This document shows, one piece after another, positions 219 through 49,971 of a stretch of DNA of 59,292 nucleotides. This DNA is from Bacilli bacterium (GTDB lineage Bacteria > Bacillota_I > Bacilli_A > RF39 > UBA660): contig JAVWBB010000001.1 of NCBI GenBank assembly GCA_036649735.1, positions 1 through 59,292 on the forward strand, given 5' to 3'. The notes under the pieces were generated by a model that did no database searches, was not told the DNA's origin, and saw only the letters and a list, made by a program, of their open reading frames with translations. The position numbers and the translations under genes were made by a program. The number at the start of each line of letters is the position of its first letter. The stretch's first letter is position 1.

Positions 219-464
219 TTGATGAGTAGATATATAAAAAATAATTTATCTTTAACAGTTCGTAAAAATATTAAAAAATACAGGCTAATGCGAAATTACA
301 CTATGCAAGAACTTGCAGATTTAACAGGTTTGACTCATGGATATGTTAGAGATTTGGAATGTTTCTCAATTAACAAAACCCCTTTACTAGAAACAATCGG
401 AAAATTTGCAGATGCACTTGAAATTGACATAAGACAGTTATTTGATGATATTAGTGAAAAATAA
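219..464 (+). CDS. XRE-family helix-turn-helix transcriptional regulator (81 aa)
   Basis: YTMQELADLTGLTHGYVRDLE is a typical HTH_3/XRE motif. The likely true start is ATG at 222, after AAGGAAG. Divergent from the partial gene at the left edge. Confidence 0.8.
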   Translation: MMSRYIKNNLSLTVRKNIKKYRLMRNYTMQELADLTGLTHGYVRDLECFSINKTPLLETIGKFADALEIDIRQLFDDISEK

Positions 465-654: not shown

Positions 655-1854
655 TTATTTGCGATTTAAGTATTTATTTAATTCCACAAATTCTGTTATT
701 TTATTTAAACCTAAATACTTTTCACAATCAAAATTAGTTGATATTTTCATCATAAATTCTAAAAGATAATTTAATTCATCTACTGTTTTAATTCTAGTTG
801 CTCGATTAAATTTAGATAAACTTGTAAATAAATATTGCTTATCAACTTTAATTTTATATTTTAATATTTTAAACACCGCATCAAAAAATTCTTCATCACT
901 AAAAATAATCGTAAATAATAAAATTTTTAAAAATATATAAATAGGCATATCATATAATTTGTTTTGAATTAATTTTGATAGTCCCGCTTCTTCAAACTCA
1001 TAATCATAAAGTTCTAAAAAGGGAACACTAGAAATAGTATTCGTTAATTCTTTAGAATCGTCTATTAATAATATCTTAGTTAATTTATAAACATAACTTA
1101 ATTTAAGTGCCCCTTCGTTATTCAATTTCATATTTTTATTATAATTATTTTTAACTTTTAATAATTTTAATACTTGATCTAAGAATTTGTTTTCTTCATT
1201 ATTATCATCATTTACAACGCTAATATCTATAAAGTCATCTATTAATGATGGAAAATCTAATTCTTCTATTTCTTCTTTTTTAACGCCTTCATTTTGTAAT
1301 TTCATAATTTCTTCCAGAGGTATTTTGATAGTTTTTTCTAAATCTAAATTATAATTCCTTTTTTTACTTCTTTCACTTTTAATAATAAATTTCTTAAATA
1401 TAACATCAAAATTAATTAATGATAGTATAATAAAAATTATTATTAATAAACCTAAAGCTCTTAGCATAAATACTGTAGATACTACAAAAACAACTTTACC
1501 TATTACTTGAGTTTTATTAATCGGTTCATCTAATGTGTTATTAGTGTCTCCTTTTGTTAATAGTTGATTATTATTTATTTTTATTAAACGGTGAGTAATA
1601 AAATCTTTATTATCTTTAAAGGTTATAATATCATTTTCGACAACTTTATTTGTTAGTTTGACAATTATTAAATCATCTTTTTCAATTTCACCTGTCATAC
1701 TTCCTGTTTTAACTTGAAAATAAGTGTATCCAAAAACATTAGCATAATCTTGTTTAAAAATGCCTGTTGTTACTAAGATATATACACATAACATAATCAT
1801 AATTCCTAAAATTGTGTATATTATGCCTTTTAAAATAGTTTTTATCCACTTCAT
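655..1854 (-). CDS. SipW-type signal peptidase I (S26, ER/archaeal type) fused to a C-terminal domain of about 235 aa with unknown function
   Basis: N-terminal TM, then the catalytic-Ser motif KTGSMTGE. ITHRL is the His motif and TKGDTNNTLDEP the conserved box. A second TM follows (LRALGLLIIIFIILSLI), then a long hydrophilic extension absent from ordinary SipW. RBS AGAGGT upstream. Confidence 0.7.
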   Translation of the reverse strand: MKWIKTILKGIIYTILGIMIMLCVYILVTTGIFKQDYANVFGYTYFQVKTGSMTGEIEKDDLIIVKLTNKVVENDIITFKDNKDFITHRLIKINNNQLLTKGDTNNTLDEPINKTQVIGKVVFVVSTVFMLRALGLLIIIFIILSLINFDVIFKKFIIKSERSKKRNYNLDLEKTIKIPLEEIMKLQNEGVKKEEIEELDFPSLIDDFIDISVVNDDNNEENKFLDQVLKLLKVKNNYNKNMKLNNEGALKLSYVYKLTKILLIDDSKELTNTISSVPFLELYDYEFEEAGLSKLIQNKLYDMPIYIFLKILLFTIIFSDEEFFDAVFKILKYKIKVDKQYLFTSLSKFNRATRIKTVDELNYLLEFMMKISTNFDCEKYLGLNKITEFVELNKYLNRK

Positions 1855-1914
1855 ATTTACCTCTATTTATTCTTTTATCTTAATAAGTATATCATAAAAT
1901 AATTGTTTATAAAC

Positions 1915-3534
1915 CTAATTTAATTTATTAACGGTACATATAAAATTTATATTATCAAAAGTAATATGGCCCTTAGACATATAATAAATTGTTGCAATCA
2001 TTTTAACATCTTGATGTAATTTACTTAAATTCTCTTTATTTAAATCTAAAATATCAAAATTAATATTAAATAAATAATATTTATCACAAATTAATTTAGT
2101 AATATTTTGGGTATTTAAAATGTTTACCTTCTTTGTAAATGTATTATTTGGATTAAAACAAAAATCGGTAAAATCATTAATAAACTTAGTTACTTGAGAT
2201 TGGTTACTTTTAGGATTTTCTAATTTAAATAAAGTCCTCAAATAAACATAAGAAGAATTGCATAATTTAATAACATCATCTAAAGTAGCTTTATCATCTA
2301 AATTTATTAATATTTTTTCATTTATTAAATTATCTTCTAATTCATCATAAAGTTTAGATAGTTTATCTATTTGTAAATTAATGCTTTCTTTTATTTCATT
2401 AGGTTGAACTTTTTTGCTAAAAATACTAGGCCTTTGGGCCTTTTCATAAGCATAAACTAGTTTTTCTCTAATCTTTTCTTCCTTATCTACTTCTTTTGTT
2501 TTATTTTGATATACACCTTTATATGAATCCTTTTTCATATATCTTTTAATAATATCTTGTATAATACTTTCAAAATAGTAATAATTTTCTAATTCTTCTA
2601 ATATTTTATCTAAACTAATTATATCACTATAAAATTTGTCTATTTCAACTTGATTAAGATTAGCAAAGTTTACATCTTTATCTAAAAAACGGTTAAAAAC
2701 ATTTTTACGATTAGAGCTGTCTTCTATATAATCAGCAATTGCTAATTCATTAGTTAAAAATTTATTTAAATTTAAATAATCATTAGTTTTAATTAAATAA
2801 TCCATATTAATCATAACATCATTATACGCAGTTAAGCAATTTTCTTCATTAAGATTAGTTTGTAATAATAATTTGTTTTTTAATTCTTCTTCATAAGATT
2901 TTAATTCTTTAGTATATAATGTCACTATATATTTCATATTTAATTTTAAATGAATTATTAATGATGGACATTCCCAATATATACTTTCAAAAGTATTCTT
3001 CATTTTTTCACAAAATGTTGAATCATTCATAAATTCAAAAAAATCTTTCATATATAAATAAGTAGCAACACTATAATTAAAGTCATAGTTTGTAAGAATT
3101 ATATTCATTTGTCTAAATTTATTAATAAACATTAATAACAAATTATTAACTGTATCTAAATCAATGTTTTCATTATCTTTCAATTCACATATTATTTCAT
3201 TTAAGCCTAATTTATCAGCTGTATTACTTTTATCTAAAGAAAGTATAGTTTTCTGTATTAAGATTCCTTGATTTTTTAAAGAAATCAAATCTTTTGTATC
3301 ATCCCTTGGTAACATTGTATTAGACTTCTCTTTTATAGTTTTAAATAACAACTCCTTATATTGAGTAAATAGTGTTATTTCTTCACTTACAAATTCATTT
3401 TTTTTAATAATGGCCTCTTCATGATATTTCTTAATCATTTTTTTAGTTCCTATATTATTTTCTAAAGGAAATTCAGCAATGAATTGACGATTAGATTCTA
3501 TTAATTTAGTAATACTTTGTATATTAGTTTTCAT
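1915..3534 (-). CDS. Hypothetical 539-aa protein, no signal peptide or TM, likely helical/cytoplasmic; part of the SipW/TasA-like locus
   Basis: Long uninterrupted ORF. Its start ATG lies inside the stop region of the upstream 46-codon ORF (GATGAAAACTAA overlap). I recognise no family motif. Confidence 0.6.
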   Translation of the reverse strand: MKTNIQSITKLIESNRQFIAEFPLENNIGTKKMIKKYHEEAIIKKNEFVSEEITLFTQYKELLFKTIKEKSNTMLPRDDTKDLISLKNQGILIQKTILSLDKSNTADKLGLNEIICELKDNENIDLDTVNNLLLMFINKFRQMNIILTNYDFNYSVATYLYMKDFFEFMNDSTFCEKMKNTFESIYWECPSLIIHLKLNMKYIVTLYTKELKSYEEELKNKLLLQTNLNEENCLTAYNDVMINMDYLIKTNDYLNLNKFLTNELAIADYIEDSSNRKNVFNRFLDKDVNFANLNQVEIDKFYSDIISLDKILEELENYYYFESIIQDIIKRYMKKDSYKGVYQNKTKEVDKEEKIREKLVYAYEKAQRPSIFSKKVQPNEIKESINLQIDKLSKLYDELEDNLINEKILINLDDKATLDDVIKLCNSSYVYLRTLFKLENPKSNQSQVTKFINDFTDFCFNPNNTFTKKVNILNTQNITKLICDKYYLFNINFDILDLNKENLSKLHQDVKMIATIYYMSKGHITFDNINFICTVNKLN

Positions 3535-3664
3535 CTGCTAATTCCTCTTCTTCTATAATAATACTTGTTTCTAAATATTTAAGATGTTCTAAAACTTCTT
3601 GATAAGTTGCTAATAAAAGCCATGAATCTTCATTAATCAAATCTATTATTTCATCATCCATCAT
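3524..3664 (-). CDS. Small acidic 46-aa ORF (MMDDEIIDLINEDSWLLLATYQEVLEHLKYLETSIIIEEEELADEN), translationally coupled to the 539-aa gene
   Basis: Found by hand; not in the track. GAAGGAGAAAC RBS directly upstream of ATG at 3664. Its stop TAA (3524-3526) overlaps the downstream ATG (3534) by 11 nt. Confidence 0.35.
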   Translation of the reverse strand: MMDDEIIDLINEDSWLLLATYQEVLEHLKYLETSIIIEEEELADEN

Positions 3665-3680
3665 AGTTTCTCCTTCATAA

Positions 3681-3712
3681 TTTAATAAAAGGAGTTCCTT
3701 TAAGAACCCCTT
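3681..3712 (-). terminator. Rho-independent terminator/attenuator after the 335-aa putative major subunit gene
   Basis: The minus-strand RNA is AAGGGGUUC-UUAAAG-GAACUCCUU followed by UUAUUAAA. That gives a 9-bp stem with one G-U pair and a U-rich tail. Confidence 0.45.
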
Positions 3713-3738
3713 CTAATGTTTAATATTATAATTTTAAA

Positions 3739-4746
3739 TTAAGCTTGTGTTTTAGTACTAAATTGTAAGTTGTATGTAACACTACCACCTGATGCATTAT
3801 TTTCACAGTCAACATCTTGACCTTCAACCCACATGTATACTCTAACCTTATTAACTCCAGCTTTTAAATTAAATGTTAATTTATAAGCCGTTGTAAGAAT
3901 TCCGGAAGCTGGTGTTGTTAAACTAGGTGATACTTGTGCAAAATATAAACCATCATTTGAATTTAGTGGAATATTTTTGTCTGCAAGAATAGGAGCTTTT
4001 ACACCATAATATGCAAGAGCAGTCCCTCCAGTTAACGTTGTAGTAAGTCCATAAGTTGATTTAGCATAAGCAACTCCTGCTGCTGTATGAACATCATAAT
4101 TAGGTTCCCAAATAAAGACATTGTTTGCTGCTGCTGTTGCCTTTAATCCTTGAATTACGGCAATATCTGAACCAGTGGCAACATTTCCTTCATTAATAAG
4201 GGCTACACGTCCTGCGTTTTCGATTCCAGTACTTGTATTTTTAGCGATAATACTTGAATTAGATGTAAGATATACATCTGTTGCCTCTCTTAGTTGGAAA
4301 AATAAATCAAATGCGATAAAAGCTCCCGCTGTCCCATGAACTTCTTTATTTTCTGTAGCACTTAATATAAAGTTCCCGGCCGTATTACTACTAATTTCAC
4401 CTTTAAACATCTTCATAAAACCGGTTGTCGTATCGATATCACCAACTGTTGAAATTGGCACTAAATTTTCAAGACCACCAGGTAATTGATTAACTGCTTT
4501 AGGATAAGTAGTTGCTGCTCCTGTAATATCTGCGTTTGATATTAATGTCTTCCAATTTAATCCATCAACCGACACTTGAAGTCCATTCGCACCTGCTACA
4601 TTAATATCAATGTTACTTAAGGTTACAGTCTTATTTGCAGTAAACCATGCATAAGTACTTGTTGTTAAAATAGCACCTGTAAATAATATCATTAGTAATG
4701 ATATAAATAGTTTTCTTCTTTTTCTTATTTTTTTACTAGTATTCAT
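3739..4746 (-). CDS. Secreted TasA/camelysin-like protein with a SipW-type signal peptide; candidate major fibre subunit (335 aa, Ala/Gly/Thr-rich)
   Basis: N-terminus KKIRKRRKLFISLLMILFTGAILTTSTYAWFTAN resembles the TasA signal junction (GGGTWAAFND). Composition is visibly richer in G+C, Ala, Gly and Thr than the neighbours. Strong RBS AAAGGAG, and a terminator follows. C-terminal motif MWVEGQDVDCENNASGGSVTYNLQF is shared with the upstream gene. Confidence 0.7.
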   Translation of the reverse strand: MNTSKKIRKRRKLFISLLMILFTGAILTTSTYAWFTANKTVTLSNIDINVAGANGLQVSVDGLNWKTLISNADITGAATTYPKAVNQLPGGLENLVPISTVGDIDTTTGFMKMFKGEISSNTAGNFILSATENKEVHGTAGAFIAFDLFFQLREATDVYLTSNSSIIAKNTSTGIENAGRVALINEGNVATGSDIAVIQGLKATAAANNVFIWEPNYDVHTAAGVAYAKSTYGLTTTLTGGTALAYYGVKAPILADKNIPLNSNDGLYFAQVSPSLTTPASGILTTAYKLTFNLKAGVNKVRVYMWVEGQDVDCENNASGGSVTYNLQFSTKTQA

Positions 4747-4760
4747 TTTTATTCTCCTTT

Positions 4761-5462
4761 TTATTTCACATGTTCTTCTGTAAAATACATATTCATTTTT
4801 ATTTCACCACCAAGTAAATCATTTATGCAATCTGGATCATCGCCTTCAATCCAAATAACTAAAGTATAACAATCTTTTTCTTTGGCTTTTAATTGTTCTC
4901 TTTTTTCCAAAAGAACTTTTTCATTAGAATAAAATTTCTTTGTCCCAAATTCTTCCTTTTTTGTTATTGCATTTTTTTTGGCATATATAGTTGGAACATG
5001 ATTTTGGTATATCATAATTCTAATTGCTGAATCAACATTTCTAATTGAATCATCAATATCAACATTGTACCAATAATTAATCGCATCCACTCCAGTATTT
5101 ATAACATAAAATGTATATGCAATATAATTAGGGCCATTATGACTCCCGCCTATTTTTGTATCAATATCTTTAGGAAGCCAATCAATGGAAATATTATCCA
5201 TATAATCAAGTGTTTTAACAGATAACTCTATTTTTTTATGCTCTTTTTTACCATCTTCAGATAAATATAAACTCTTTTGATTAGCCATATTTTTATCTAA
5301 GGAAATAGTAAAAGATGCTCCTCCATAAATAATATACAAAAATAAGTAAGTAATAGATAAGGCACCGATTAACAGAAGAAAAACAATCTTTGTCATTTTA
5401 GAAAATAATTTCCTTTTGTAAACCCGTTCTGCTGTCATATTAATTGAATAATTTTTTTTCAC
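4761..5462 (-). CDS. Membrane-anchored/secreted paralogue of the 335-aa protein (233 aa)
   Basis: Hydrophobic helix IVFLLLIGALSITYLFLYIIYGG. C-terminal motif IWIEGDDPDCINDLLGGEIKMNMYF matches the tail of the 3739-4746 product. The track start is GTG at 5462; an alternative ATG lies at 5438. Confidence 0.6.
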   Translation of the reverse strand: MKKNYSINMTAERVYKRKLFSKMTKIVFLLLIGALSITYLFLYIIYGGASFTISLDKNMANQKSLYLSEDGKKEHKKIELSVKTLDYMDNISIDWLPKDIDTKIGGSHNGPNYIAYTFYVINTGVDAINYWYNVDIDDSIRNVDSAIRIMIYQNHVPTIYAKKNAITKKEEFGTKKFYSNEKVLLEKREQLKAKEKDCYTLVIWIEGDDPDCINDLLGGEIKMNMYFTEEHVK

Positions 5463-5770
5463 GTCACTTCACCATCATTTCAGTAAATTATTGTGCTTTT
5501 AATATTAAATTGCACATAATTAATATTACCGCGAACATATAATAAGAATTATTCTGCTTAAATTAAATAATAATGAGTAACAAAATAAACAGACATATCT
5601 TACTTATTGTTCATATCTTTTACACAATACTAATATAACATACCTTTCTACAAAATACAATTTTTTTCGACATTTTTTTCAAACCTTATTTACATTGCTT
5701 TTCTTTGCTTATTTTACAAAACAATAGACTTTTAGCGATATATTTAGTACAATTAAATCAAGGTGAGTAT

Positions 5771-6364
5771 ATGAAAAAGAAGTTATGGATAGGGCTAGGT
5801 ATTTTAATTTTATTAATTATTACTATTTATTTTACACAAGAAACATTTGCTAAATATCGTAAAAAAATTGATGGTCAAGCCCAAATGAATATTGCAAACT
5901 GGAATATTAAAGTTAATAATGAAAGCATTGCTGGTAAAAACGACTTAACAACGACAATTGTTCCCACTTTTTTAGCTACTCCTAATACAAAAGAAAATGT
6001 AATTGCTCCAGGCAGTGTTGGCTATTACGATATAGTTATAAACGCTTTAGATGTTGATGTATCATTTTCTTATACTATTTTTTCTAGTACGGACCCAACA
6101 TCTAATATAAAAGATTTAGTGACTACCGCCTATGAAATAAATCCTAGTGCATCCTCAGTTAAAACAACTTATTCTAGTAATACTGGAATTACAGGTTCAA
6201 TTAATCATAATACCAATCAAATAACTATTCGTATTCACATTAAATGGAATGATAATCCTACCGAACAAACCATGACTAATGCGGATGATACAAATGCTGC
6301 CATCAATAACACTTCAAAAGCCATTATGAAAGTTAATTTACATTTTTCACAATTAAATATTTAA
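5771..6364 (+). CDS. Secreted TasA-like protein with a SipW-type signal (198 aa); the only plus-strand gene in the locus
   Basis: The track ORF is 5705-6364. The start at ATG 5771 follows AAGGTGAG. Signal LILLIITIYFTQETFAKY. A clear paralogue of the 13099-13710 product: ANWNIKVNN vs AMWNIKLDD, IAPGSVGYYDIVI vs IAPGTQGTLKVLI, and HFSQ vs NASQ tails. Confidence 0.65.
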   Translation: MKKKLWIGLGILILLIITIYFTQETFAKYRKKIDGQAQMNIANWNIKVNNESIAGKNDLTTTIVPTFLATPNTKENVIAPGSVGYYDIVINALDVDVSFSYTIFSSTDPTSNIKDLVTTAYEINPSASSVKTTYSSNTGITGSINHNTNQITIRIHIKWNDNPTEQTMTNADDTNAAINNTSKAIMKVNLHFSQLNI

Positions 6365-6378
6365 TAATTAAACAATTT

Positions 6379-7161
6379 CTATGGTGTCGTCGTACCTCTT
6401 TGTGAAACTTTTAAATCCAAATGATAACGTAAAGATGATAATGTAGGATTGTTTTCTTTATACTTTACTGCTTGTTCCCCCCAAAAACTATCTCCATCAT
6501 CGCTTTCAATATATAAACCATTGATTATTTTTTCATTTATATTCGCGCTTGTAATATCTAAAGCCAAATGATAAGTATCTGTTAAAGTATAATAAGAAAG
6601 TTTAGGATTATAAATAAAATCATTAGTTAATTTATAATACTGATTTGTTTGTTCAAAAGGCCAACTAACAGTAATTGTAAATTCAATTTGGTCGCCCTTA
6701 TGTTGCAATACTTTCTTATTTGCAGTGTGTGATATTTTAAAAGGATAATCTTTTTCTAAGGAATTTAAAACTTTATCATTTCCAACTGTTGTATCTTCAA
6801 TAACAATATTGCTTCCTAAAATAGATAATTGGTTTACTTTAAAAGTAAAATCAGAAACAGTTTCTCCAGAATTTTTAATTAATATTTTTTTAGTAAATGT
6901 ATTCATTCCTGGTCGTAAATCATTAACAACAATATCAAAGTCCATCAAAACAGCATTTTCATCATAAAACTTTATATCCCAACCAACTATATTAGCATTA
7001 ATAGATAAATTAGCATTAGCCACAAAGACAAACCAAGCATAAACATTTACAATTAAAAGAAAAGATGCAAAGAAAATAGCATTTCGTTTAAGTTTTTTCC
7101 TTTTAGATTGTAAAACTTCATACGCACTTTTAACTATTTGTGTTTTCATCTTCTTCTTCAT
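6379..7161 (-). CDS. Secreted/anchored protein with a SipW-type signal junction (260 aa)
   Basis: FFASFLLIVNVYAWFVFVANANLSIN shares the YAWF junction with the 335-aa protein. It overlaps the end of the upstream signal peptidase gene by 32 nt. ATG 7149 is better spaced from AAGGAG than ATG 7161. Confidence 0.6.
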   Translation of the reverse strand: MKKKMKTQIVKSAYEVLQSKRKKLKRNAIFFASFLLIVNVYAWFVFVANANLSINANIVGWDIKFYDENAVLMDFDIVVNDLRPGMNTFTKKILIKNSGETVSDFTFKVNQLSILGSNIVIEDTTVGNDKVLNSLEKDYPFKISHTANKKVLQHKGDQIEFTITVSWPFEQTNQYYKLTNDFIYNPKLSYYTLTDTYHLALDITSANINEKIINGLYIESDDGDSFWGEQAVKYKENNPTLSSLRYHLDLKVSQRGTTTP

Positions 7162-7720
7162 TCTCCTTTTTTTTATCCTTTAATTCAACAACAGTATCTG
7201 CTATTTCCAAAAAAACTACTAAAACTAAAGGGGCAAATACCAAAAAGAAAAATCCAAATTTATTTCTAACTATTTGATTAATAAAACTAATAATAGTTAA
7301 CTTACTAACTACTTTACCATATATCTGACTCTCTTCTACAGTTGGATCTTCTGTAGTATTAGCAACTCCTTTGGTATGAAAATAATATGTATTACCAGGT
7401 TTTTCTTCAATATTAATAATTCTATGGGTAATAATTTTATCTTTCATATCATCTTTAATTCCTAAATAAGTAATATCATCGCCAATCTTTAAATTCTTAC
7501 AATCAATTTCATTAATTAAAATAACATCATCAACTTTATAGATAGGGTCCATACTAGCTGTTGCAATATTAAAAATACGATAGCCCATAATTGAACCATT
7601 ATTACTAATCCTTTGAAAAATGACAAAGCATAAATATAAAACTACTGATAAAACAAATAAAGTTTTAATTATTTTATAAACGCCTTGAAATATTTTATTA
7701 TTTATAATCTTTTTAAACAT
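7130..7720 (-). CDS. sipW: Signal peptidase I, SipW type (196 aa), apparently catalytically intact
   Basis: TM, then ATASMDP (Ser motif), ITHRI (His motif) and TKGVANTTEDP. C-terminal TM FFFLVFAPLVLVVFL followed by an acidic tail. RBS GAGGT. Starts 9 nt after the preceding gene. Confidence 0.8.
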   Translation of the reverse strand: MFKKIINNKIFQGVYKIIKTLFVLSVVLYLCFVIFQRISNNGSIMGYRIFNIATASMDPIYKVDDVILINEIDCKNLKIGDDITYLGIKDDMKDKIITHRIINIEEKPGNTYYFHTKGVANTTEDPTVEESQIYGKVVSKLTIISFINQIVRNKFGFFFLVFAPLVLVVFLEIADTVVELKDKKKENEEEDENTNS

Positions 7721-7729
7721 ATACTACCT

Positions 7730-8824
7730 CTATTCTAAAATTAAATATGACTCCTTTAAATTATCGGAAATTATATTAAATTTATATTTAAATGCTTTAA
7801 ATATTATCTTTTCTCTATTTCTTGATTTTTCTTTAGCTATTTTTATTTGTTTGTGAAATAATTCTTTGATTTTCTTTTCTGTTAAGTTAGGGTCAAAATC
7901 AATGATATTTTCTAACAATTTATTTATAGTTAATGACAAAGCTTTATTTTCTGATAAATGATGTTTTTTTTCGGAAATTAATTCCGTGGCTAAATAAAAT
8001 AATAATACTCCTTGGTCGAATTGTTCTTTTAATTGGCCGCTATCTAAATAATCTTGATTGTCTTTTGTAATTTTATATTCCTCTTTTATATATGATTGAA
8101 TATAATTCCATAAACGCGATGCTTGTTGAAAATTAGGATTTTTTAAAATAACATTAGTTTTATGAATTGGTGATTGAACTGCTGATACGTGTAATTTATT
8201 TAAAGTAATCATTAATTCCGTATTTGTAAATGCATCTAATTGTGTTTTTATAGTTTTTAATCGACTATCAAAACTATTTTCTTTATCTAAATCATCTATG
8301 CTTTTATTTGTTGATTGATAATTAATTGATACTTTTATATCTTCTGTTTTTATTTTCATTGTCCCGTTATATTCCAAATCTAATTTATCATAAAATGATG
8401 ACTCTCCATTAAATTCCCTTAATCTAAGTTCAATAAAATAACGCATGTTATTTACTAAAGTAAATATAAAGCGATTTTCATATGTATCTATACTTTCATC
8501 TTTATTAATATTTAATATTTTAGAAGGGCGAACATCACCTTTTATGGGGTCATAATCTTGAATTAAACTAGTATGTTGAGTTAAATGTATAATACTTTCA
8601 ACAGTAACTTTTTTAGCTAATTCGACCTTAACTATTTCTTCTTCATTAACAATAAATCTTTTTGGATTTCTTAAAATGTTATCAATATAAGGAATTATTT
8701 CTTCGAAAATATTTAACCATTCATCATTTAATTTTTTATCTTCATAATTTCTTTTTACTGATAATAATGATTGTAATGAATTTAATATAACTTTTGATTC
8801 TTCTAATTTATTACGATCATCCAT
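7730..8824 (-). CDS. McrC-N/DUF2357-like partner of the McrB-type ATPase, with no recognisable PD-(D/E)xK nuclease core (364 aa)
   Basis: Positioned 10 nt downstream of the McrB-like gene. ILRNPKRFIVNEEEIV and IDTYENRFIFTLVNNM resemble motifs I recall from McrC-N/DUF2357 proteins. I could not find a D...(D/E)xK motif in the C-terminal half. No TM. Confidence 0.45.
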   Translation of the reverse strand: MDDRNKLEESKVILNSLQSLLSVKRNYEDKKLNDEWLNIFEEIIPYIDNILRNPKRFIVNEEEIVKVELAKKVTVESIIHLTQHTSLIQDYDPIKGDVRPSKILNINKDESIDTYENRFIFTLVNNMRYFIELRLREFNGESSFYDKLDLEYNGTMKIKTEDIKVSINYQSTNKSIDDLDKENSFDSRLKTIKTQLDAFTNTELMITLNKLHVSAVQSPIHKTNVILKNPNFQQASRLWNYIQSYIKEEYKITKDNQDYLDSGQLKEQFDQGVLLFYLATELISEKKHHLSENKALSLTINKLLENIIDFDPNLTEKKIKELFHKQIKIAKEKSRNREKIIFKAFKYKFNIISDNLKESYLILE

Positions 8825-8834
8825 TTTACACCTC

Positions 8835-20400: not shown

Positions 20401-22097
20401 TTACCTGTTTGTGTTATCTCAAGTGGATAAATCCCACTAGGTTTAAACTTTGTGAATGAATTGCTCCAACTATTATCTACGGACATATAACTTACTATAG
20501 CCTTCATCCAACTAGCTTTAAAATCAATAACTATTTCATCAGGAATATTATTTGTATAAGTAATTGGAATAATAGCAATATTTTGATGATAGTTTTTATC
20601 ATATATTATTTTTGCATTAGGATAATTAGTAATCCAATTATTAAATGCTAAGTCCGTAGGATGATTAGTAAAAGGATTGTCAATTAAAGGAAATTTAACA
20701 TAGTCCCCACTAGGTGATGAAATGATATTAAAAACTTTATAATACGTAAAAGTATCTTGTAATTCAGTTAAAGAAACACTCGCACTTAATATTTCATTAT
20801 TAAAAAGTGTTGTATTTCCATAATAATTAATTTGAAACTTTGCCAATGTTTTTTCATTATATAAATTTTGGTTAATACCCGTAGGCAATTTCCCATTGTT
20901 ACTAGATGTATAATTTAATCCTGTATACTTATTCCAATCACTTTCTAAATCATTAACATAAACAATATTTCCTGATATACCCGAATTATGTTGACTAATT
21001 GTATGCATTTTAATAGTAGATGATTCTTTTTGATAACTATTTTTTATAGCCAATTTATTAATCAACTCTATAGAAGTCCCCACCATTTTCCATTCATAAG
21101 GCTCTGATAATAAAGTGTTTTCTTCTAATAATAAACTAGCAATATCTATGTTGACATTATTTAAATTTGAAACGTTTTTATTATCTATTTTTTTATAAAT
21201 ATTATTTAATATAGAATTAGTATTTTTAAACCCATAAATGTAATTGGTACTTGTTGTCGATTTAATTACTTTGCTATTTATAATAATATTTTCAAGAGAT
21301 GTTATAGCGTTAGTATTTAGATATCCAACTGTTCCCCCATCATAGGAATAATTTGGTAAATCAATGATTACTTCAACCATACTGTGCATTATTTTGCTAT
21401 TATCTAATTGTTCTCCAATAATTCCACCTATCTTATGAATAGATGATGACCCTAATGTCGATGATTTTATATTAATGTTCTTAGTAGCGATATTTTTGAT
21501 TAAGGAAGAGTTACTTAGTTTCCCAGATAGTGTCCCACCCACAATTTCATTAACTGTGTTTTTCAAAGTAATATTTATATCTTCCAAATTTAAATTTTCA
21601 ATTGCTCCGTTTTCAATTATAGAAAAAATCCCATAATAATCAATATTATCTATAGTTACAGGTTCTATTTCTTTAAAATTTTTAATAGTATAACCATCAC
21701 CATTAAAATGCCCTTTAAAAAGGAACAAATCGGTGTTTATTTTTTTACCAATTGCCGTAATTGAAAACCCGCCTAAATTAATATTTGAACTCAACTTATA
21801 ATATTTAGTATTATAAATATTATTTTCTGATGATTCTATTTTGTTTTTAAAATATATAAATTCTGCCCCATTAGAAATTTGATAAGGATTTTCACGTGTT
21901 CCATTGCCTTTATTAAAAGAGGTTGCAATGGTATGCCCATCCCAGACAGCTTCATCTGGTAATAAACTACTAAGTGTTTTAGGGCCTATAAAAATATTAT
22001 AACCAATATAAATAGTAACGATAAGAAGTAAAAACAATGCACTATTTAAAAATAACGTTTTCTTAAGTTTTTTATTTTGCTTTTCTTTGTTCATCAT
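14496..22097 (-). CDS. Giant 2,533-aa surface protein: N-terminal anchor/signal, GLUG-like region, long parallel beta-helix of YGG(G/S)N repeats, beta-rich C-terminal domains
   Basis: A single 7.6-kb ORF with RBS GGAAAGGAG. N-terminal TM LFLNSALFLLLIVTIYIGYNIFI. Residues about 60-330 resemble GLUG-type modules (FKGHFNGDGYTIKNF, IGGIIGEQ). Residues about 860-1650 (DNA about 17150-19520) carry dozens of about 20-aa repeats such as NVYGGGN, SIYGGSN and NIYGGGN. No C-terminal LPXTG. Confidence 0.85.
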   Translation of the reverse strand: MMNKEKQNKKLKKTLFLNSALFLLLIVTIYIGYNIFIGPKTLSSLLPDEAVWDGHTIATSFNKGNGTRENPYQISNGAEFIYFKNKIESSENNIYNTKYYKLSSNINLGGFSITAIGKKINTDLFLFKGHFNGDGYTIKNFKEIEPVTIDNIDYYGIFSIIENGAIENLNLEDINITLKNTVNEIVGGTLSGKLSNSSLIKNIATKNINIKSSTLGSSSIHKIGGIIGEQLDNSKIMHSMVEVIIDLPNYSYDGGTVGYLNTNAITSLENIIINSKVIKSTTSTNYIYGFKNTNSILNNIYKKIDNKNVSNLNNVNIDIASLLLEENTLLSEPYEWKMVGTSIELINKLAIKNSYQKESSTIKMHTISQHNSGISGNIVYVNDLESDWNKYTGLNYTSSNNGKLPTGINQNLYNEKTLAKFQINYYGNTTLFNNEILSASVSLTELQDTFTYYKVFNIISSPSGDYVKFPLIDNPFTNHPTDLAFNNWITNYPNAKIIYDKNYHQNIAIIPITYTNNIPDEIVIDFKASWMKAIVSYMSVDNSWSNSFTKFKPSGIYPLEITQTGNSNIIDKKYENAIMAGYYREKRIPLNSSLNGFYDNLGNLQTSGICTNNTGCIYYELIQYYNEYGAKEVIDSSQTYFYLVTRDTNILVLDKSVEDTWTTAESKPFTLTSVYNKTDYRSNIVWTVRAIAVTCYADTTIENILINSNQQDYIASPSSNIAAQRYLYGNWFNLRLGRGIKHLNNYKNFTTVLGGKNNASGSNTSVAKYSLIIESGYYNSIGVSNGRVANDFNNYLAAKGVYGNDFDRIKNDNSLLDIYFCAASSWGGVIYGENALSEAFDITVKSGSFGSGKYDLTSGIYVGGRSGGTYHASKKINYLGGYTYNLIGGPLTDSTRELVNDTYMYVSGGFIDMITGGAGTTATYGNRLIQVTGGTVNYSIFGGSNGVNGSGSDGLLNGSAFVYVGGNATVGLADNVTNNRTLYGSEAGSVFGIGNGRQGFDLIGSADNSTIIIDGNATINRNVYGGGNFGAVGISSSKPTTSTKIRINGGNIKGSVYGGGNRNGSGSSRISSTVDILMTSGKVFGNIYGGSNELGTIFGNVSIKMYGGEVGTSIYGGGQGGFVNNDNKGTFVTGNIDVVVGKTDILTIPSVLDSVYGGSAYGVVNGDSQNVNVSPNSTTVIINKGTITNAVYGGARGNTTFTPSVNGNILVNINGGNIGNVYGGNDAAGIPNGTIEVNLNGGTIGNAFGGGNNTGTNTTKITLAGATTTLLFGGSNSNGNINKTEILLLSGVANNVYGGNNLGGFVTNSFITMNNSNITGSVYGGGKFANTTNAEVHLNGGNALAAYGGGESASVTNTKVYLNGSSITSIYGGSNVTGDVSSAFINSTSGTSKNVYGGNNAGGTTSNVEMVINGGNIDNIYGGGNKAITHNVVVTTNGGIIGNIYGGGNLAEITNNVILNINNTTITDSIYGGGNLGNINKNVQLRINNSTITNNVYGGGNKADVIGNTTTGVSGTTVINGNLFGGGDSGAIGVELNNNSVATLNIAGATINKNVYGGSNTSVVYGTTNVNIGRKALEDINLKAGNIEIIGTVFGGGEANASGSEIFDYSFICVTVAIHINIDGKPYLSNAQKFNLTGSIFGSGNASSSSGTSDIYIGYLGTKSSPSRNISIQRSNTVIMDNSFIELSGATDRTNEYSTIKYSFNRIDLLKVKNNTTLLLKQNANLLKRLDSLVDINNIEVKSTVTIDDLTKQVAKNVDNRLYLMANKNLNISTNEAATSYGIINGMMFFGMYNSYNNGLLGYGLYDTNFGYGSVADAGDVIMGGSYVLGLHNLNHDITKDGFYTNYIDNAYTKITTAYINPTPPSATYYMWLIGTQAINYSFGLNASKYSSLGTYELSMLDFAKGNTIFNVIGFNCEGLSGGVTLKDASDVPKIATNDTEANSVLGLSMKSETTEWTMYGTTKFLSSNKGAYTGMKNYKTDNVSTAPSLMFYLYHAKNISLDANLGTVIITLQALTPINQIEYEVSLVTVTIDIMAKSYTDGNYYDSSITYDKKYEMPSSTTVNITNKSQFTAYYSLYAKGESLDKIYGNNNTYYHALTSNFVLPVGTKITLLDYETKTNTPGYYYYVVDDANYLTKQQELTNYHEVTYRLSDFIKMGSTSLTNKYSDKAANNLYYNSTNKVAMEEFLVIFDFKATTSAIVSPNNTILFELRNSEDRPIISVLGIRQDIMKYSLYNVTNVSLKEDAKFENNYVYHETDAKIIFSSMVTYDQTLNREPIIDTNYESSKMGLNISFKDNSGNTLSSSLLMGSLIKVNNDVTYVDSGGVFRVKLADKVSNLNPNISFYAKNKLPPGIYKMIITLFASNDGLHNSGTLAVDTKELTFTLVGDNNLIIVSSTPENKIVDKTTGLNMSGSKLEKYTVKYDSELINPNIRITLYKRTIINENDVNYVEMDIRKLFTSTFTFPAAVSLVAQTPFEYALSVNKAVDNLFQFELDNILATGTYKLVFRLYDNNHFIDEDTDSLIIKNNIIMP

Positions 22098-22155
22098 TTT
22101 ACTCCTTTCCTACATTTATTATATACAAGAATATTGTACCACAACCTTATATTTT

Positions 22156-22344
22156 TCAAAAGAAAAAGAATACAGTCTTTATCTTATTTAATTTTAAAAG
22201 AAATACACATTTTAAATAAAAAATACACCTCCTTTTAGAAATGTATTTTATTATTTTACTTGTTAAAATAGTTTTAAACATAAAGTTTGTTGAAAAATTA
22301 ATAAACTTTAAATCATTGATTTTCTCTTCATATATTTCATTCAC
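22156..22344 (-). CDS. Possible upstream/leader ORF (62 codons from GTG, or a 10-codon out-of-frame ATG peptide MKYMKRKSMI)
   Basis: AGGAGG (22352-22357) lies 7 nt upstream of GTG 22344 and 11 nt upstream of ATG 22340. The distal half of the 62-aa product looks like translated AT-rich spacer, so a functional protein is doubtful. Confidence 0.25.
   Translation of the reverse strand: MNEIYEEKINDLKFINFSTNFMFKTILTSKIIKYISKRRCIFYLKCVFLLKLNKIKTVFFFF
22220..22249 (-). terminator. Weak terminator/attenuator-like hairpin in the leader of the giant gene
   Basis: The minus RNA is AAAAUACA-14 nt loop-UGUAUUUU followed by UUAUUU. An extra direct copy of AAATACAC at 22201-22208 could offer alternative pairing. 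Confidence 0.3.
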
Positions 22345-22374
22345 TTTTTTACCTCCTTTCTAGAGGGTATGAGC

Positions 22375-22403
22375 ACTATAACCTAATTTAAATTACTTTG
22401 CAA
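22375..22403 (-). promoter_or_regulatory. Sigma-A-like promoter upstream of the locus (TTGCAA - 17 nt - TATAGT)
   Basis: -35 TTGCAA at 22398-22403, -10 TATAGT at 22375-22380, exact 17-nt spacer, positioned just upstream of the strong SD at 22352-22357. Confidence 0.4.
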
Positions 22404-22415
22404 ATCGTCAATCTC

Positions 22416-22429
22416 ACGTATTAATACGT
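22416..22429. promoter_or_regulatory. Perfect 14-bp palindrome ACGTATTAATACGT just upstream of the -35; candidate regulator binding site
   Basis: Read directly from the sequence. Centred about 22 bp upstream of the -35 hexamer centre. Confidence 0.3.
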
Positions 22430-22483
22430 AAAAAAATCCTCGATTTTAAAAATTACTTTAAGACAATTCTCAAAATTAGGACA

Positions 22484-22516
22484 ATAAAAAAGGGCCGAAT
22501 TTTATAATTGGACCTT
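22484..22516 (-). terminator. Terminator after rpoE (hairpin flanked by A and T runs, potentially bidirectional)
   Basis: GGGCCGAATT-TTAT-AATTGGACC, an imperfect stem with bulges, flanked by AAAAAA and TTTTTT. Confidence 0.5.
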
Positions 22517-22529
22517 TTTTAATTATTTT

Positions 22530-24586: not shown

Positions 24587-24931
24587 TTAAACCTCCTTAA
24601 ATATTAATGATAGAGTTATTTCATCATTATCAATTAAATATTGGGTCTCAAAACTATCTTTAGATATATTTATTTTTAAAACATTTATCTTTAAAGAACT
24701 AGTTACTTTCTCTTTTAATAAGTCTGTATTTATTACATTTTCATTTAAGTCTATTTCGATTATAAACTCATTATTTCTTCTAATTATCTTTTTATCAGTC
24801 AAATTAATACTCATTGTTATATCATTATCGACAAATGTAATTATATTTCTAGCCTCATCAAACTCGCCAATACAACTATATTTATACATCACACTATTCG
24901 TTTTAAGAGTGCCTAAAACATTAATTTTCAT
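24587..24931 (-). CDS. DUF1934 (YwiB-like) beta-barrel protein
   Basis: Small gene immediately upstream of argS, as in many Bacillota. ATG 24931 follows GGAGG; the track ORF extends to 24976. Confidence 0.6.
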   Translation of the reverse strand: MKINVLGTLKTNSVMYKYSCIGEFDEARNIITFVDNDITMSINLTDKKIIRRNNEFIIEIDLNENVINTDLLKEKVTSSLKINVLKINISKDSFETQYLIDNDEITLSLIFKEV

Positions 24932-25038
24932 CCGTTTTGCCCTCCTAAATAATTTATACATTGAATTATAGCACATTAAGTAAATTTGTACACATATTTT
25001 TATATTTATTTTTCATACTAAACTTAGGTGGAGGTATT

Positions 25039-43688: not shown

Positions 43689-44318
43689 TTACTTAGTAAT
43701 CTTTAATAAAGAACGATTACTATTTTCTATTGGTAAAGTAAATTCTAATAGTTTATCTATTTTTAAATGTTTTTTATTAATAATTTTAGATGATTCTATT
43801 AACTCTTCTTGTATATTTCCCTTCATTATTAATAATTTAGTAGAATCATTCATCAAAGGATAACAAATATCGATTAATTTAGATAGTTTAGCGACTGCTC
43901 TTACCGTTATTATATCAAATGTAGTATTTATGTCTTCTACACGAGAATGAAGCGCAGTAATGTCTAATAAGCCTAATTCTTTAATTACTTCATTTAAATA
44001 AAGAACACGTTTATTTAAAGAATCAACTAGGGTGATTTTTAAATTAGGATAAACAATTTTTAACACAATTCCTGGAAATCCAGCACCACTACCAACATCA
44101 CATAAAGTCTCATTCGTAAACGAATATATTTTAGACAATGTAAGGCTGTCATAAAAATGTTTTAAATAAATCTCTTTTAAATCTACTATTCGCGTTAAAT
44201 TAATACGTTTATTCCAGCTAATTAGTAATTGATAAAATTTATTTAACTGTTCTAATTGAAGAGGTGTTAAAAAGATATTATCTAATTCTAAAGCTTTAAT
44301 AAATTCAAATTCACTCAT
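43689..44318 (-). CDS. rsmG: 16S rRNA (guanine527-N7)-methyltransferase RsmG
   Basis: SAM motif CDVGSGAGFPGIVLKI. Conserved position after mnmG. Confidence 0.9.
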   Translation of the reverse strand: MSEFEFIKALELDNIFLTPLQLEQLNKFYQLLISWNKRINLTRIVDLKEIYLKHFYDSLTLSKIYSFTNETLCDVGSGAGFPGIVLKIVYPNLKITLVDSLNKRVLYLNEVIKELGLLDITALHSRVEDINTTFDIITVRAVAKLSKLIDICYPLMNDSTKLLIMKGNIQEELIESSKIINKKHLKIDKLLEFTLPIENSNRSLLKITK

Positions 44319-46173
44319 TATTGTACTTCCTTTTTAAATAAATTGTAATAATCGATATATCAGAAGGATTAATTCCACTAATTCGACTAGCTTGACCAAC
44401 AGTTTTTGGTCTTACTAATTCTAACTTTTGTAATGCTTCACTAGCTAAATTATGAATATTTTGATAATTAATATCTAATGGTATTTTAATATTTTCTAAA
44501 TTACCTAACTTTTGAGCTTCTCTTATAGACTTTTTAATATATCCTTCATATTTAGCATATATTTCTACTTGCTCTAAAACTTCATTATCATAATCTAAAT
44601 TTATAAACTTTTTTAAATCATTAATTTTAATTTCTGTTCTTTTTAAAAAGTCAAATAAAGTCATTGAATCTAGTAATACTGGCGTTTTTAGTAATTCAAA
44701 ATATTCTTTAACTTCAGCTTTAGGAGTTATTTTAATTGTCTTTAATTGCTCGATTAAATTATTTATATTATTTTCTTTAAGTAAAAACTTATCATATCTA
44801 TCTTTACTTATTAAACCAACTTCATAACCATATTTAGTTAATCTTAAGTCTGCATTATCATGTCTTAAGAGTAAACGATATTCTGCTCGAGAAGTTAACA
44901 AACGATACGGTTCTTTAGTTCCTTTAGTTACTAAATCATCAATTAATACTCCAATATAAGCTTCATTTCTTTTTAATATTAATTGTTCTTTATTTTCTAG
45001 TGTTAAGGATGCATTAATACCCGCTAATAAACCTTGACAAGCGGCTTCTTCATAACCACTAGTGCCATTAATTTGTCCTGCTGTATATAAATTTTTAATT
45101 ATTTTAGTTTCTAAAGAAGGGTTAATGTTTAAAGGATCAATTGCGTCATATTCAATGGCATAAGCAAATTTATTAATTATGCAATTTTCTAAACCTGGTA
45201 AACTTCTAATCATTTTTTCTTGTATATCATAAGGCATACTAGTTGAAAAACCTTGTAAGTATATGTCATTATAATAAATACTTTCTGGCTCTAAAAATAA
45301 TTGATGTCTTTCTTTATCAGCAAATTTTACAACTTTATCCTCAATTGAAGGACAATATCTAGGACCAATTCCTGAAACATATCCTCCATACATACTTGAT
45401 TTTTTTAAGTTATCTTTAATTATTTGATGGGTAAGGGGAGTTGTATATATTAAATGACAGGGTATTTGTTTGTTAACATCGTAATTGGGGATATTATCAT
45501 AAGAAAAACTATATTTCTTTAAATCTCCTGTTTCTAATTTAGTTTTAGTAAAATCAATACTGTCTTTTTCAATTCGTGGAGGAGTTCCTGTTTTTAATCT
45601 TTGAATTGTAAAACCATATTTTTTTAAATTATCACTTAAATAAAGAGAAGGATTTTGGTTATTTGGACCGCTTCTTCTTTTAGTATCTCCAACTAATATA
45701 TCTGCTTTTAAATATGTTCCCGTTGTTAAAATAACGGCTTTAGCTAATATTTTTTGATTGTTACTTAAAACTATTCCTTTTACCAAGTTATTTTCTATAA
45801 TTAAATCTTCTACCATACCTTCAAGAATAGTTAAATTATTTGTCTGTTTTAATGTTTTTAACATTTCTTTTGGATAAGTTATTTTATCGGCTTGAGCTCG
45901 AAGTGCTTGAACAGCTGGGCCTTTTTTAGTGTTAAGCATTTTAATTTGTAAAAATGACTTATCGACATTTTTAGCCATTTCACCACCTAAAGCATCAATT
46001 TCACGAACAACAATTCCTTTTGCTGGTCCTCCAATTGATGGATTGCAAGGCATTGTCGCAATATTATTAATATCCCCTGTAACTAGAAGAGTTTTATGAT
46101 TTTTTCGACTAGCTGCTAAAGATGCTTCACATCCAGCATGTCCTCCTCCAACAACAATTATTTCATATTCCAT
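44311..46173 (-). CDS. mnmG: tRNA uridine 5-carboxymethylaminomethyl modification enzyme MnmG (GidA)
   Basis: FAD motif IVVGGGHAGCEA. 620 aa. Canonical GidA blocks (GPRYCPSIEDK). Confidence 0.95.
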   Translation of the reverse strand: MEYEIIVVGGGHAGCEASLAASRKNHKTLLVTGDINNIATMPCNPSIGGPAKGIVVREIDALGGEMAKNVDKSFLQIKMLNTKKGPAVQALRAQADKITYPKEMLKTLKQTNNLTILEGMVEDLIIENNLVKGIVLSNNQKILAKAVILTTGTYLKADILVGDTKRRSGPNNQNPSLYLSDNLKKYGFTIQRLKTGTPPRIEKDSIDFTKTKLETGDLKKYSFSYDNIPNYDVNKQIPCHLIYTTPLTHQIIKDNLKKSSMYGGYVSGIGPRYCPSIEDKVVKFADKERHQLFLEPESIYYNDIYLQGFSTSMPYDIQEKMIRSLPGLENCIINKFAYAIEYDAIDPLNINPSLETKIIKNLYTAGQINGTSGYEEAACQGLLAGINASLTLENKEQLILKRNEAYIGVLIDDLVTKGTKEPYRLLTSRAEYRLLLRHDNADLRLTKYGYEVGLISKDRYDKFLLKENNINNLIEQLKTIKITPKAEVKEYFELLKTPVLLDSMTLFDFLKRTEIKINDLKKFINLDYDNEVLEQVEIYAKYEGYIKKSIREAQKLGNLENIKIPLDINYQNIHNLASEALQKLELVRPKTVGQASRISGINPSDISIITIYLKRKYNNE

Positions 46174-46182
46174 TTATAACAT

Positions 46183-47538: not shown

Positions 47539-47569
47539 AAATTATCTCCTTTCTTTAGAAAAAAGGAGT

Positions 47570-49425: not shown

Positions 49426-49467
49426 AAAATTCCTCTACTAATTATCAAAAAAACCACTATTCGTGGC

Positions 49468-49914: not shown

Positions 49915-49971
49915 ATTTGAGATACACTTAATCTAATTATTTATATCTTTAAATCAAGGGGGCGAGATTTT

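Follow-up and report, generated by a model that had tools for sequence, protein, structure and literature searches.

In the tapA-sipW-tasA operon of Bacillus subtilis and the sipW-tasA-calY operon of Bacillus cereus, a dedicated signal peptidase of the endoplasmic reticulum (ER) type is encoded beside its substrates; the subunits are beta-sandwiches, and in their cleavage junctions P3 is T, P1 is small and P2' is aromatic. Its aromatic P2' makes TasA a substrate of SipW and not of LepB-type enzymes (PMC10269814). Clostridium perfringens encodes SipW-dependent matrix or pilus subunits in sipW-bsaA-bsaB-bsaC, remotely TasA-like and present as several paralogues, and BsaA is proposed to undergo donor-strand exchange at the membrane, ahead of its cleavage by SipW (PMC11580942). 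Archaeal AbpA bundling pili, CanA/AbpX cannulae and Sulfolobus threads consist of beta-sandwich subunits that are exported through Sec, are cleaved by a signal peptidase of the archaeal/ER type and join by chaperone-free donor-strand complementation (PMC9245690, PMC12518558, PMC9715654). Here we describe a locus at positions 655 to 22,097 of a 59,292-nt stretch from a Bacilli bacterium (GenBank assembly GCA_036649735.1, contig JAVWBB010000001.1), called the window below, which resembles the Bacillus operons in its ER-type peptidase genes beside putative substrates, in its junctions and in its predicted beta-rich subunits.

The evidence supports the genes of this locus as a single, conserved system that serves exported proteins with junctions of the SipW type. 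Judging from sequence and from structure models, the locus is on balance probably a chromosomal, SipW-dependent surface-fibre system of the donor-strand type, with an optional GTPase module. By open reading frame (ORF) listing and translation it holds 17 genes, counting the 46-aa ORF s46; three of them encode SipW-type peptidase homologues, seven encode small exported proteins, and one encodes a repeat protein of 2,533 aa. The features are as follows.

g01: 655..1854, minus strand, SipW-type signal peptidase with a cytoplasmic C-terminal domain, 399 aa; core module.
g02: 1915..3534, minus strand, 539-aa cytoplasmic protein; core module.
s46: 3524..3664, minus strand, conserved acidic 46-aa ORF, overlapping the start of g02 by 11 nt.
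g03: 3739..4746, minus strand, 335-aa exported beta-rich protein; candidate major fibre subunit.
g04: 4761..5462, minus strand, 233-aa signal-anchor protein; candidate membrane-anchored base or nucleator subunit.
g05: 5771..6364 (ORF from 5705; likely start 5771), plus strand, exported group-B protein of about 197 aa.
g06: 6379..7161, minus strand, 260-aa exported protein bridging the g03/g04 group and group B.
g07: 7130..7720, minus strand, SipW-type signal peptidase.
g08: 7730..8824, minus strand, 364-aa McrC-like protein with a DUF2357 domain and without a PD-(D/E)xK nuclease.
g09: 8835..10355 (full ORF to 10379; the start is taken to be the ATG in the ATGA overlap with the g10 stop), minus strand, McrB-like GTPase.
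g10: 10352..11458, minus strand, 368-aa protein, probably cytoplasmic.
g11: 11527..12462, minus strand, 311-aa exported protein.
g12: 12476..13084, minus strand, 202-aa exported group-B protein.
g13: 13099..13713, minus strand, 204-aa exported group-B protein.
g14: 13859..14458 (alternative start 14413), minus strand, SipW-fold membrane protein, probable pseudo-peptidase.
g15: 14496..22097, minus strand, 2,533-aa surface protein; candidate adhesin.

An earlier note on this DNA, made from the letters alone, had placed 15 of 16 genes on the minus strand with tiny gaps or overlaps. Its coordinates were reproduced (16 of 17 genes once s46 is counted), and so was the tight spacing: there are gaps of only 9-14 nt, g10 and g09 share an ATGA, and g07 overlaps g06 by 32 nt. 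The sole plus-strand gene, g05, converges on g06 and diverges from g04, so the locus cannot be a single operon and comprises at least three transcription units. Promoter and terminator scans of the locus gave counts equal to those of shuffled sequence in this AT-rich DNA, and were therefore not used as evidence.

The gene that marks the system is g03. A profile search of 1.84 billion representatives retrieved 3,844 clusters (50% identity) at E≤1e-3 and 410 at E≤1e-30; in 90% clusters the homologues number 2,598, all unnamed and without Pfam domains, and no Pfam or NCBIfam model exists for the family. Distant members keep STYAWFT[AS]N and WxEGQDxDC. A g03 relative is encoded in 442 species-representative genomes, the best 80 of which were inspected; these 80 are all uncultured gut or rumen metagenome-assembled genomes (MAGs), labelled Bacilli, Mycoplasmatota, Erysipelotrichaceae, "Mycoplasma sp. 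CAG:877" or Ca. Faecenecus. An identical g03 protein is encoded in NCBI MAG GCA_036652995.1.

Comparing all window proteins by tblastn with 82 loci, we recognised two modules. The core has the order g04-g03-s46-g02-g01-g15 in about 50 of the 82 loci. The extension reaches from g14 to g05 and is present in 16 of 82, with the exact synteny of the window in L003, L009 and L015; elsewhere it is rearranged yet still interleaved, as in L079, where the order is g10-like, g04, g03, SipW, McrB-like, DUF2357, three YAWF/YGW-junction proteins and SipW. The core is a GTPase-free system with the wider spread, and the GTPase module is an optional extension to it. The gene set, whose conservation across genomes the earlier note had proposed to map, is found in order in dozens of other genomes, so that the note's own ground for rejection, a set kept together nowhere else, clearly does not apply.

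One could suppose that two or three unrelated operons have come to lie side by side by chance in a low-GC genome: the opposite-strand g05 splits the cluster into its several transcription units, and most genomes have the core without the extension. Three loci reached through distant g03 relatives (L087-L089) bear directly on this supposition. They keep the order g14-g13-SipW-g12-g11-g10-g09-g08-g07-g06-g05-g04-g03 at identities of only 33-35% for g03 and about 60% for g09, and on one of these contigs the order continues with a g15 relative longer than 3,451 aa. Retention of the full order at such identity rules out a recently inserted restriction cassette, and in effect also chance juxtaposition, which is largely refuted by synteny and which we hold to be very improbable. 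In addition, paralogous families span both modules (g06 has a g03-like junction and a g13-like N-terminal region), and the g01-, g07- and g14-type peptidase homologues co-occur in extended loci. The divergence of g05 from g04 is kept in most loci (L003, L009, L015, L066, L067, L082, L087 and L088), and the g05 start at 5771 agrees with a 197-aa call in GCA_036652995.1.

Seven proteins have N-terminal signal peptides: g03, g05, g06, g11, g12, g13 and, with an uncleaved-looking one, g04. These signal peptides consist of an n-region, an h-region and a small-residue cut site, and are not of the class III form G↓F(M)xxxE (arrows mark cut sites). Six of the families share a junction, conserved in orthologues, of the form [T/S]-[Y/F/L]-[A/G/S/T], predicted cut, x-[F/Y], in which the bracketed sets stand for P3, P2, P1 and P2'. 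In g03 it reads TSTYA↓WFTAN, with W-F invariant in 83 of 83 g03 sequences and Y-A-W-F-T-A-N almost invariant. The g06 junction, VYA↓WF, is of the g03 type, and its A-W-F is invariant in 8 orthologues. The others are ETFA↓KY (g05), SLA↓RY (g11; G↓RY in orthologues, with R-Y conserved in 9 of them), TYA↓SY (g12) and TLT↓SY (g13). The TasA junction, GTWA↓AF, is mirrored here at P3 (T or S), at P1 (small) and at P2' (aromatic). Such a junction is of the kind that needs an ER-type SipW peptidase; cleavage in these proteins is predicted.

The seventh protein, g04, has a signal anchor without a SipW-type junction. It lies directly upstream of g03 in 78 of the 82 loci and has a g03-like C-terminal tail, WIEGDDPDC. 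Where about eight proteins with TasA-like N-termini and junctions had been claimed, we thus count seven exported proteins, six of them with a conserved junction.

Across the g03 alignment 62 columns are invariant, and the protein ends in the motif WVEGQDVDCE. N38, five residues after the predicted cut, is invariant, as are K66 and the EGQDVDCE block (308-315), which holds the single invariant Cys. N38 and K66 recall the intermolecular isopeptide locks of archaeal threads and of C. perfringens BsaA, where the pair is N35/K74; by analogy, this is an idea only. A further idea of the same kind is that the acidic EGQDVDCE block recalls the Ca-binding loops of cannulae; acidic loops, possibly Ca-binding, are a feature that archaeal filaments and this locus have in common.

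The exported proteins fall into at least two paralogue groups, as the earlier note had it. BLASTP supports these groups weakly, profile comparison better. The link between g03 and g04 is seen by hhalign at 82% probability over the C-terminal 42 columns, which comprise the WxEGxDxDC tail and the last strand. In group B, g13 is homologous to g05 (alignment A2), and the group profile (A3) matches g12 at 95% over 97 columns, g06 at 92% over 76 columns of the N-terminal beta region, and g11 at 92% over 33 N-terminal columns only. The g03 profile (A1) also matches g06, at 90%, over the junction only. By these comparisons g06 connects both groups, having a g03-type junction and a g13-type N-terminal region. 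None of the small proteins has a Pfam or NCBIfam match at strict or relaxed thresholds.

Three S26 peptidase homologues of the ER type had been proposed, and two of the three pass curated models. For g07, TIGR02228 (sigpep_I_arch) gives 75.2 bits against a curated cut-off of 51.85 (5e-21). Ser and His of its catalytic residues are kept, and the Asp of GDxN is replaced by V, I or L (alignment A4). The gene follows g08 in all extended loci. For g01, residues 1-125 match Pfam Peptidase_S24 with 27.6 bits (cut-off 23.3) and SipW NF046067 at 1.4e-12; the GSM, THR and GDxN motifs, with catalytic Ser, His and Asp, are all conserved in 42 orthologues. The peptidase domain lies between two transmembrane helices (10-28 and 129-147) and is followed by a cytoplasmic C-terminal domain of about 250 aa. 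In about 50 loci g01 is found after g02. A PADLOC match of Csx1 to the g01 linker (2.3e-5) was treated as a low-complexity artefact.

The third homologue, g14, has sub-threshold matches only (SipW NF046067, 3e-8; 33.5 and 22.8 bits, below the cut-offs). In alignment A8 its orthologues have S, D, K, A or Q where the catalytic Ser would stand, and at the THR motif they lack a conserved His. Transmembrane helices stand at both ends of g14, and this two-helix topology is kept in g14-type proteins. Lacking a conserved catalytic Ser and His, the g14 type looks like a conserved pseudo-peptidase, catalytically dead and so probably not a peptidase. The SipW reference in the peptidase alignments was an approximate sequence, of which only the motif positions were used and not the numbering.

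In four genomes a g01-type SipW peptidase and a g12-like exported protein are fused in one ORF of 365-377 aa (L067:8639-9769, L062:8752-9882, L082:8714-9811 and L077:2840-3934). The peptidase domain is followed by a transmembrane helix, a charged linker and a pilin-like part, which has a signal anchor and a junction (PYTF↓SRL) of its own. This ORF joins an enzyme to a probable substrate.

AlphaFold2 (AF2) models of g03 (predicted local distance difference test score, pLDDT, 86; predicted TM-score, pTM, 0.82) and of g13 (pLDDT 84), built on real alignments, are both confident and beta-rich, and that of g13 has a beta-sandwich fold. In each, a low-confidence segment lies right after the predicted cut, as expected of a donor strand without its partner. 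Compared with the PDB by Foldseek, the g13 model retrieves the PapG pilin domain at 2e-3, the TasA fibre (8aur_A) at 4e-3 (prob 0.99, TM-score 0.35-0.39) and Pyrodictium cannulae (9h8b) at 7.5e-3; carbohydrate-binding modules are also among its matches. The best match of g03 is the Sulfolobus thread subunit 7pnb, a donor-strand protein, at E=0.02, which is not significant; lectins, carbohydrate-binding modules and viral capsid jelly rolls follow. On the models, the fold evidence moderately favours donor-strand filament subunits for group B and weakly for g03.

The core protein g15 has an N-terminal membrane anchor. In a Gly/Asn-rich region at residues 941-1594 it carries 19 [YF]GG[GSAN]x repeats, spaced about 25 aa apart, and a long C-terminal region comes after. 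Its homologues follow g01 (in core loci) or g03 (in L088) in at least 46 loci. The protein matches no Pfam or NCBIfam family, and a phmmer search of PDB sequences returned nothing. A giant beta-helix protein had been proposed at the head of the cluster: the 2,533-aa protein is there, and its 25-residue repeats suggest a beta-helix.

Two core proteins are cytoplasmic components. There is no transmembrane segment in g02, and its 64 orthologues always lie between s46 and g01; it has no Pfam, NCBIfam or PADLOC match. The motif of s46, LL.LY..I.EHI.YL..SII.EEE, occurs between g03 and g02 in 52 of 65 loci, and gene callers call s46 as a gene in other assemblies; no Pfam or NCBIfam family matches it. 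Its 11-nt overlap with g02 makes translational coupling probable. By hhalign, g02, g10 and the C-terminal domain of g01 are mutually unrelated.

The extension contains an AAA+ protein, g09, which the earlier note had called a motor; we refine it to a membrane-anchored McrB-like GTPase of the NxD clade, as its sequence indicates. It matches McrB NF008457 at 4e-5 and the PDB McrB 6hz4 at 1.6e-4. The Walker A (GISGTGKTS), Walker B (LDEMN) and signature (NNDD, that is, NxD then D) motifs are intact, and IGTVNNDDST aligns without gaps with IGTANHDETT of plasmid-borne CoCoNuT-type GTPases, to which the AAA+ domain is 36-39% identical. The N-terminus consists of a hydrophobic segment, a strong transmembrane helix (65-83) and a charged heptad-rich linker; its matches to Pfam FtsL_2, FtsL and DivIC (E=0.014-0.6) are below cut-offs. 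No other gene of the extended system is as well conserved as g09, whose median identity is 60%.

The next gene after g09, in every locus, is g08, with a DUF2357 domain (Pfam, 6.3e-13). In a 13-sequence alignment (A5) g08 has no nuclease region or motif and its C-terminal half is poorly conserved; its family profile found nothing among PDB sequences. In the extension g10 precedes g09; it has orthologues in L003, L009, L015, L077 and L082, is related to a 373-aa ORF of L079 (hhalign 72%, E=3e-5) and matches no Pfam or NCBIfam family.

This pair brings the locus close to CoCoPALM, a class named in two sentences by Bell et al., who deferred its analysis and proposed a link to pilus assembly (eLife 2024, PMC11090510). 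Like the extension, CoCoPALM has an NxD-clade McrB-like GTPase (NxD being a variant of the NxxD signature, as a rule with D or E next to it; NNDD in g09), an adjacent McrC (DUF2357) partner, here g08, and genes of signal peptidase families in the operon; g07 and g14 flank the module here, as their counterparts do in L079 and L087-L089. The CoCoPALM GTPase carries an FtsB-like transmembrane and coiled-coil segment fused N-terminally, and g09 a transmembrane helix and a heptad-rich stretch, its FtsB-type homology being sub-threshold only. The signature and membrane helix of g09, the DUF2357 domain of g08 and the signal peptidases indicate that the extension belongs to this named, uncharacterised class. 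We found no follow-up paper on CoCoPALM, and the supplements of the CoCoNuT paper hold no text on it. The earlier label of a candidate undescribed system is thus only partly right: the GTPase, DUF2357 protein and signal peptidases match a class already in print. The substrates, the pseudo-peptidase, the giant protein and the g04-g03 pair go beyond that description.

As first proposed, the locus is indeed more elaborate than tapA-sipW-tasA: it has more than one peptidase homologue, a large number of subunit-like proteins, a giant surface protein and also a nucleoside triphosphatase (NTPase). It differs from the Bacillus operons in its three peptidase homologues (one probably dead) and its seven subunit-like proteins; the cytoplasmic g02, s46 and g10, the GTPase pair and the 2,533-aa surface protein are absent from those operons altogether. 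No Peptidase_M73 match or other sequence homology to the Bacillus proteins is detectable, and g03 is larger (about 300 aa when mature) and does not retrieve TasA structurally. TapA is the accessory anchored protein of the Bacillus operon, and g04 may be its counterpart by analogy. The bsa system likewise has a large accessory surface protein, but BsaC is a von Willebrand factor A (vWA) protein and g15 a putative beta-helix giant. Export of BsaA oligomers needs type IV pilus proteins; this locus has no type IV pilus genes and an McrB-like GTPase instead, and sequence homology between the two systems is not shown. The mention of "McrB" in the C. perfringens BsaA paper refers to an E. coli strain genotype only.

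The best fold matches of g13 and g03 include cannulae (9h8b, 7uii) and the thread subunit 7pnb, below the usual significance. The archaeal filaments are, however, archaeal and made without an NTPase, whereas the locus belongs to a bacterial low-GC Bacillota with peptidoglycan genes. Features of other pili are missing: none of 15 proteins contains the sortase motif [LIS]PX[TAS]G, and general family scans of the locus matched no sortase family, prepilin peptidase or PilB/TadA-type ATPase. What is new with respect to the Bacillus, bsa and archaeal fibre systems is the pseudo-peptidase, the peptidase with a cytoplasmic domain, the cytoplasmic proteins, the giant repeat protein and the GTPase pair, of which the GTPase part has already been named.

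If the locus is a donor-strand fibre system, it could work as follows. Sec would export the precursors, g03 included, and g01 or g07 would cut them at the conserved junction. The new N-terminus of g03 (WFTAN.TVTV) would then be donated to the next subunit, leading to polymerisation, while g04 would stay in the membrane as the base or anchor of the fibre. The giant g15 may be an anchored adhesin, and g05, g06, g11, g12 and g13 may be minor, tip or alternative subunits. The dead peptidase g14 may hold signal peptides without cutting them. Most speculatively, g09, g08 and g10 would form a motor or checkpoint on the cytoplasmic face, in which GTP hydrolysis would be tied to the release, ordering or gating of subunits; in the GTPase-free core, a related job would fall to s46, g02 and the cytoplasmic domain of g01.

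A bolder form of this proposal, which we offer tentatively and regard as doubtful, has g09 and g08 as a membrane-anchored, GTP-driven motor that powers or gates donor-strand, SipW-processed pili, possibly by subunit switching or release, with g14 as a signal-peptide-holding adaptor. If true, Gram-positives would possess a class of NTPase-coupled pilus machinery that is new and unrelated to type IV, sortase and chaperone-usher pili, and a restriction-enzyme motor would have been recruited to protein assembly.

Several results weigh against the fibre reading, beginning with the likeness to TasA. In Foldseek comparisons with the PDB, neither the g03 nor the g13 model has a match at E≤1e-3, and the TM-scores, at 0.23-0.5, are low; the 50 best matches of g03 do not include TasA. 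Peptidase_M73 (PF12389, IPR022121) matches none of the small proteins and none of 57 g03 homologues, even at E≤10. The g03 (A1) and group-B (A3) profiles retrieve nothing among PDB sequences, and hhalign of both against TasA gives E=0.2-0.24, which is not significant. Membership in the TasA family has no sequence support and is not established by the fold evidence. The label "TasA-like" of the earlier note therefore holds for the junction, the linkage to sipW-type genes and the beta-rich fold, and fails for sequence homology and Peptidase_M73. The structural comparison with TasA that it proposed, made on g03 and g13, found the TasA fibre with g13 only, below significance. The conservation of g03 is also unusually high for a pilin.

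The same facts could be read as pointing to monomeric or lattice-forming surface proteins, such as lectin-like binders or an S-layer-like coat, with dedicated SipW maturation and with g15 acting separately as an adhesin. Besides the thread subunit, g03 matches lectins, carbohydrate-binding modules and viral jelly rolls, and g13 matches carbohydrate-binding modules too; no Foldseek match is significant, and g03 is conserved like a housekeeping protein, unlike most pilins. Yet the invariant W-F-T-A-N after the g03 cut is hard to explain by cleavage alone and typical of donor strands. Subunits of donor-strand filaments are over-represented at the top of the fold matches (PapG pilin domain, TasA fibre, cannulae and threads), and many paralogous subunits with an anchored paralogue, g04, are the usual make-up of a heteropolymeric pilus. 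We consider the non-fibre reading distinctly unlikely.

The remaining points against the fibre reading concern the GTPase module. To our knowledge, fibres of the TasA type need no NTPase, and a role for g09 and g08 in making them is without precedent. The closest relatives of the g09 GTPase domain are in defence-type CoCoNuT operons; g09 matches the candidate defence model PDC-M26A of PADLOC at 6e-40, in a match confined to the AAA+ core (positions 280-437 of the 724 in the profile); and one extended locus (L087) adjoins a type I restriction system, which with a DUF3800 gene is about 5 kb away.

The main rival is accordingly a defence function, from the McrBC lineage. The extension, with g08-g10, peptidase homologues and small exported proteins, would have arisen from McrBC and serve in conflict or defence, next to a surface-protein operon, g04-g03, with surface or membrane proteins as effectors or sensors. 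The characterised neighbours of g09 in the NxD McrB clade are predicted defence systems, and the presence of the extension in a minority of loci (16 of 82) is often seen with accessory defence genes. McrBC and CoCoNuT share with the locus the CoCoNuT-type GTPase domain and the DUF2357 activator domain, found here in g08.

Against this, no module gene encodes a nuclease or other recognisable effector, and the locus has no DNA- or RNA-binding domain. In g08 the PD-(D/E)xK nuclease of McrBC type IV restriction is missing, and in g09 a membrane anchor replaces the nucleic-acid-binding domain. PADLOC has no model that matches g08 or g10. CoCoNuT genes neighbour methyltransferases, helicases and HEPN nucleases, whereas g09 and g08 neighbour exported proteins and peptidases: in at least three architectures they are always interleaved with SipW homologues and junction proteins, and always beside g04-g03. 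The strong conservation of g09 (60% identity) is a poor fit to fast-evolving defence genes. We judge a defence role unlikely, albeit worth keeping in view, and retain the fibre system as the best explanation.

The locus lies near the replication origin. At about 49.5 kb of the window, rnpA-yidC-jag-mnmE-mnmG (minus strand) face dnaA-dnaN-gyrB-gyrA (plus strand), a canonical origin neighbourhood (49100-49972, with flanks 44311-58863) where the GC skew changes sign; the window thus spans oriC. The locus is on the leading strand, 28-49 kb from oriC, so that part of its strand bias is expected. The G+C content of the window is about 25%. In family scans the flanks are the RNA polymerase delta subunit, argS and PBP1A.

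A mobile island had been doubted from the start, and we agree: the window has no tRNA, no integrase or transposase family matches any locus gene in family scans, no phage record matches g03, and a Foldseek comparison with viral structures returned nothing. An origin from phage or plasmid was rejected, given the lack of phage matches to g03; the plasmid matches of g09 are CoCoNuT-type defence operons without peptidases, which put g09 into the NxD clade but represent a different system.

Several features lie around the locus or its relatives. Upstream of g15 a 432-nt non-coding gap (22098-22529) presumably carries the g15 promoter, and between argS and the divergent PBP1A gene there is a 129-aa ORF without family match (24587-24976, minus strand). 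At the opposite edge, an 81-aa XRE-family helix-turn-helix (HTH) protein (219-464, plus strand) converges on the end of g01; it has weak NCBIfam matches including SlrR, over the HTH domain only (23.6 bits against a cut-off of 250). SlrR is a regulator of the tapA operon in B. subtilis. In a 'Tenericutes bacterium' MAG (L002:5358-9099) the core is preceded by a 545-aa serpin-domain protein and two proteins of 160 and 509 aa; these three have no counterpart in the window. The restriction genes of L087 (12690-21134) are a DUF3800 gene and a complete type I restriction-modification set (HsdM, HsdS and HsdR), about 1.5-10 kb downstream of g03, seen in one genome.

Next to nothing is known of the surface structures of the uncultured, small-genome, low-GC Bacilli that live in human and animal guts. 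A fibre and giant-adhesin system in 442 species genomes would be a prime candidate for attachment to host or partner cells, and the g03 family deserves a Pfam or NCBIfam model. The extension gives CoCoPALM testable content: substrates with a defined junction, a probable pseudo-peptidase and a natural comparison in the GTPase-free core. With it, the function of a nuclease-less, membrane-anchored McrBC becomes directly approachable.

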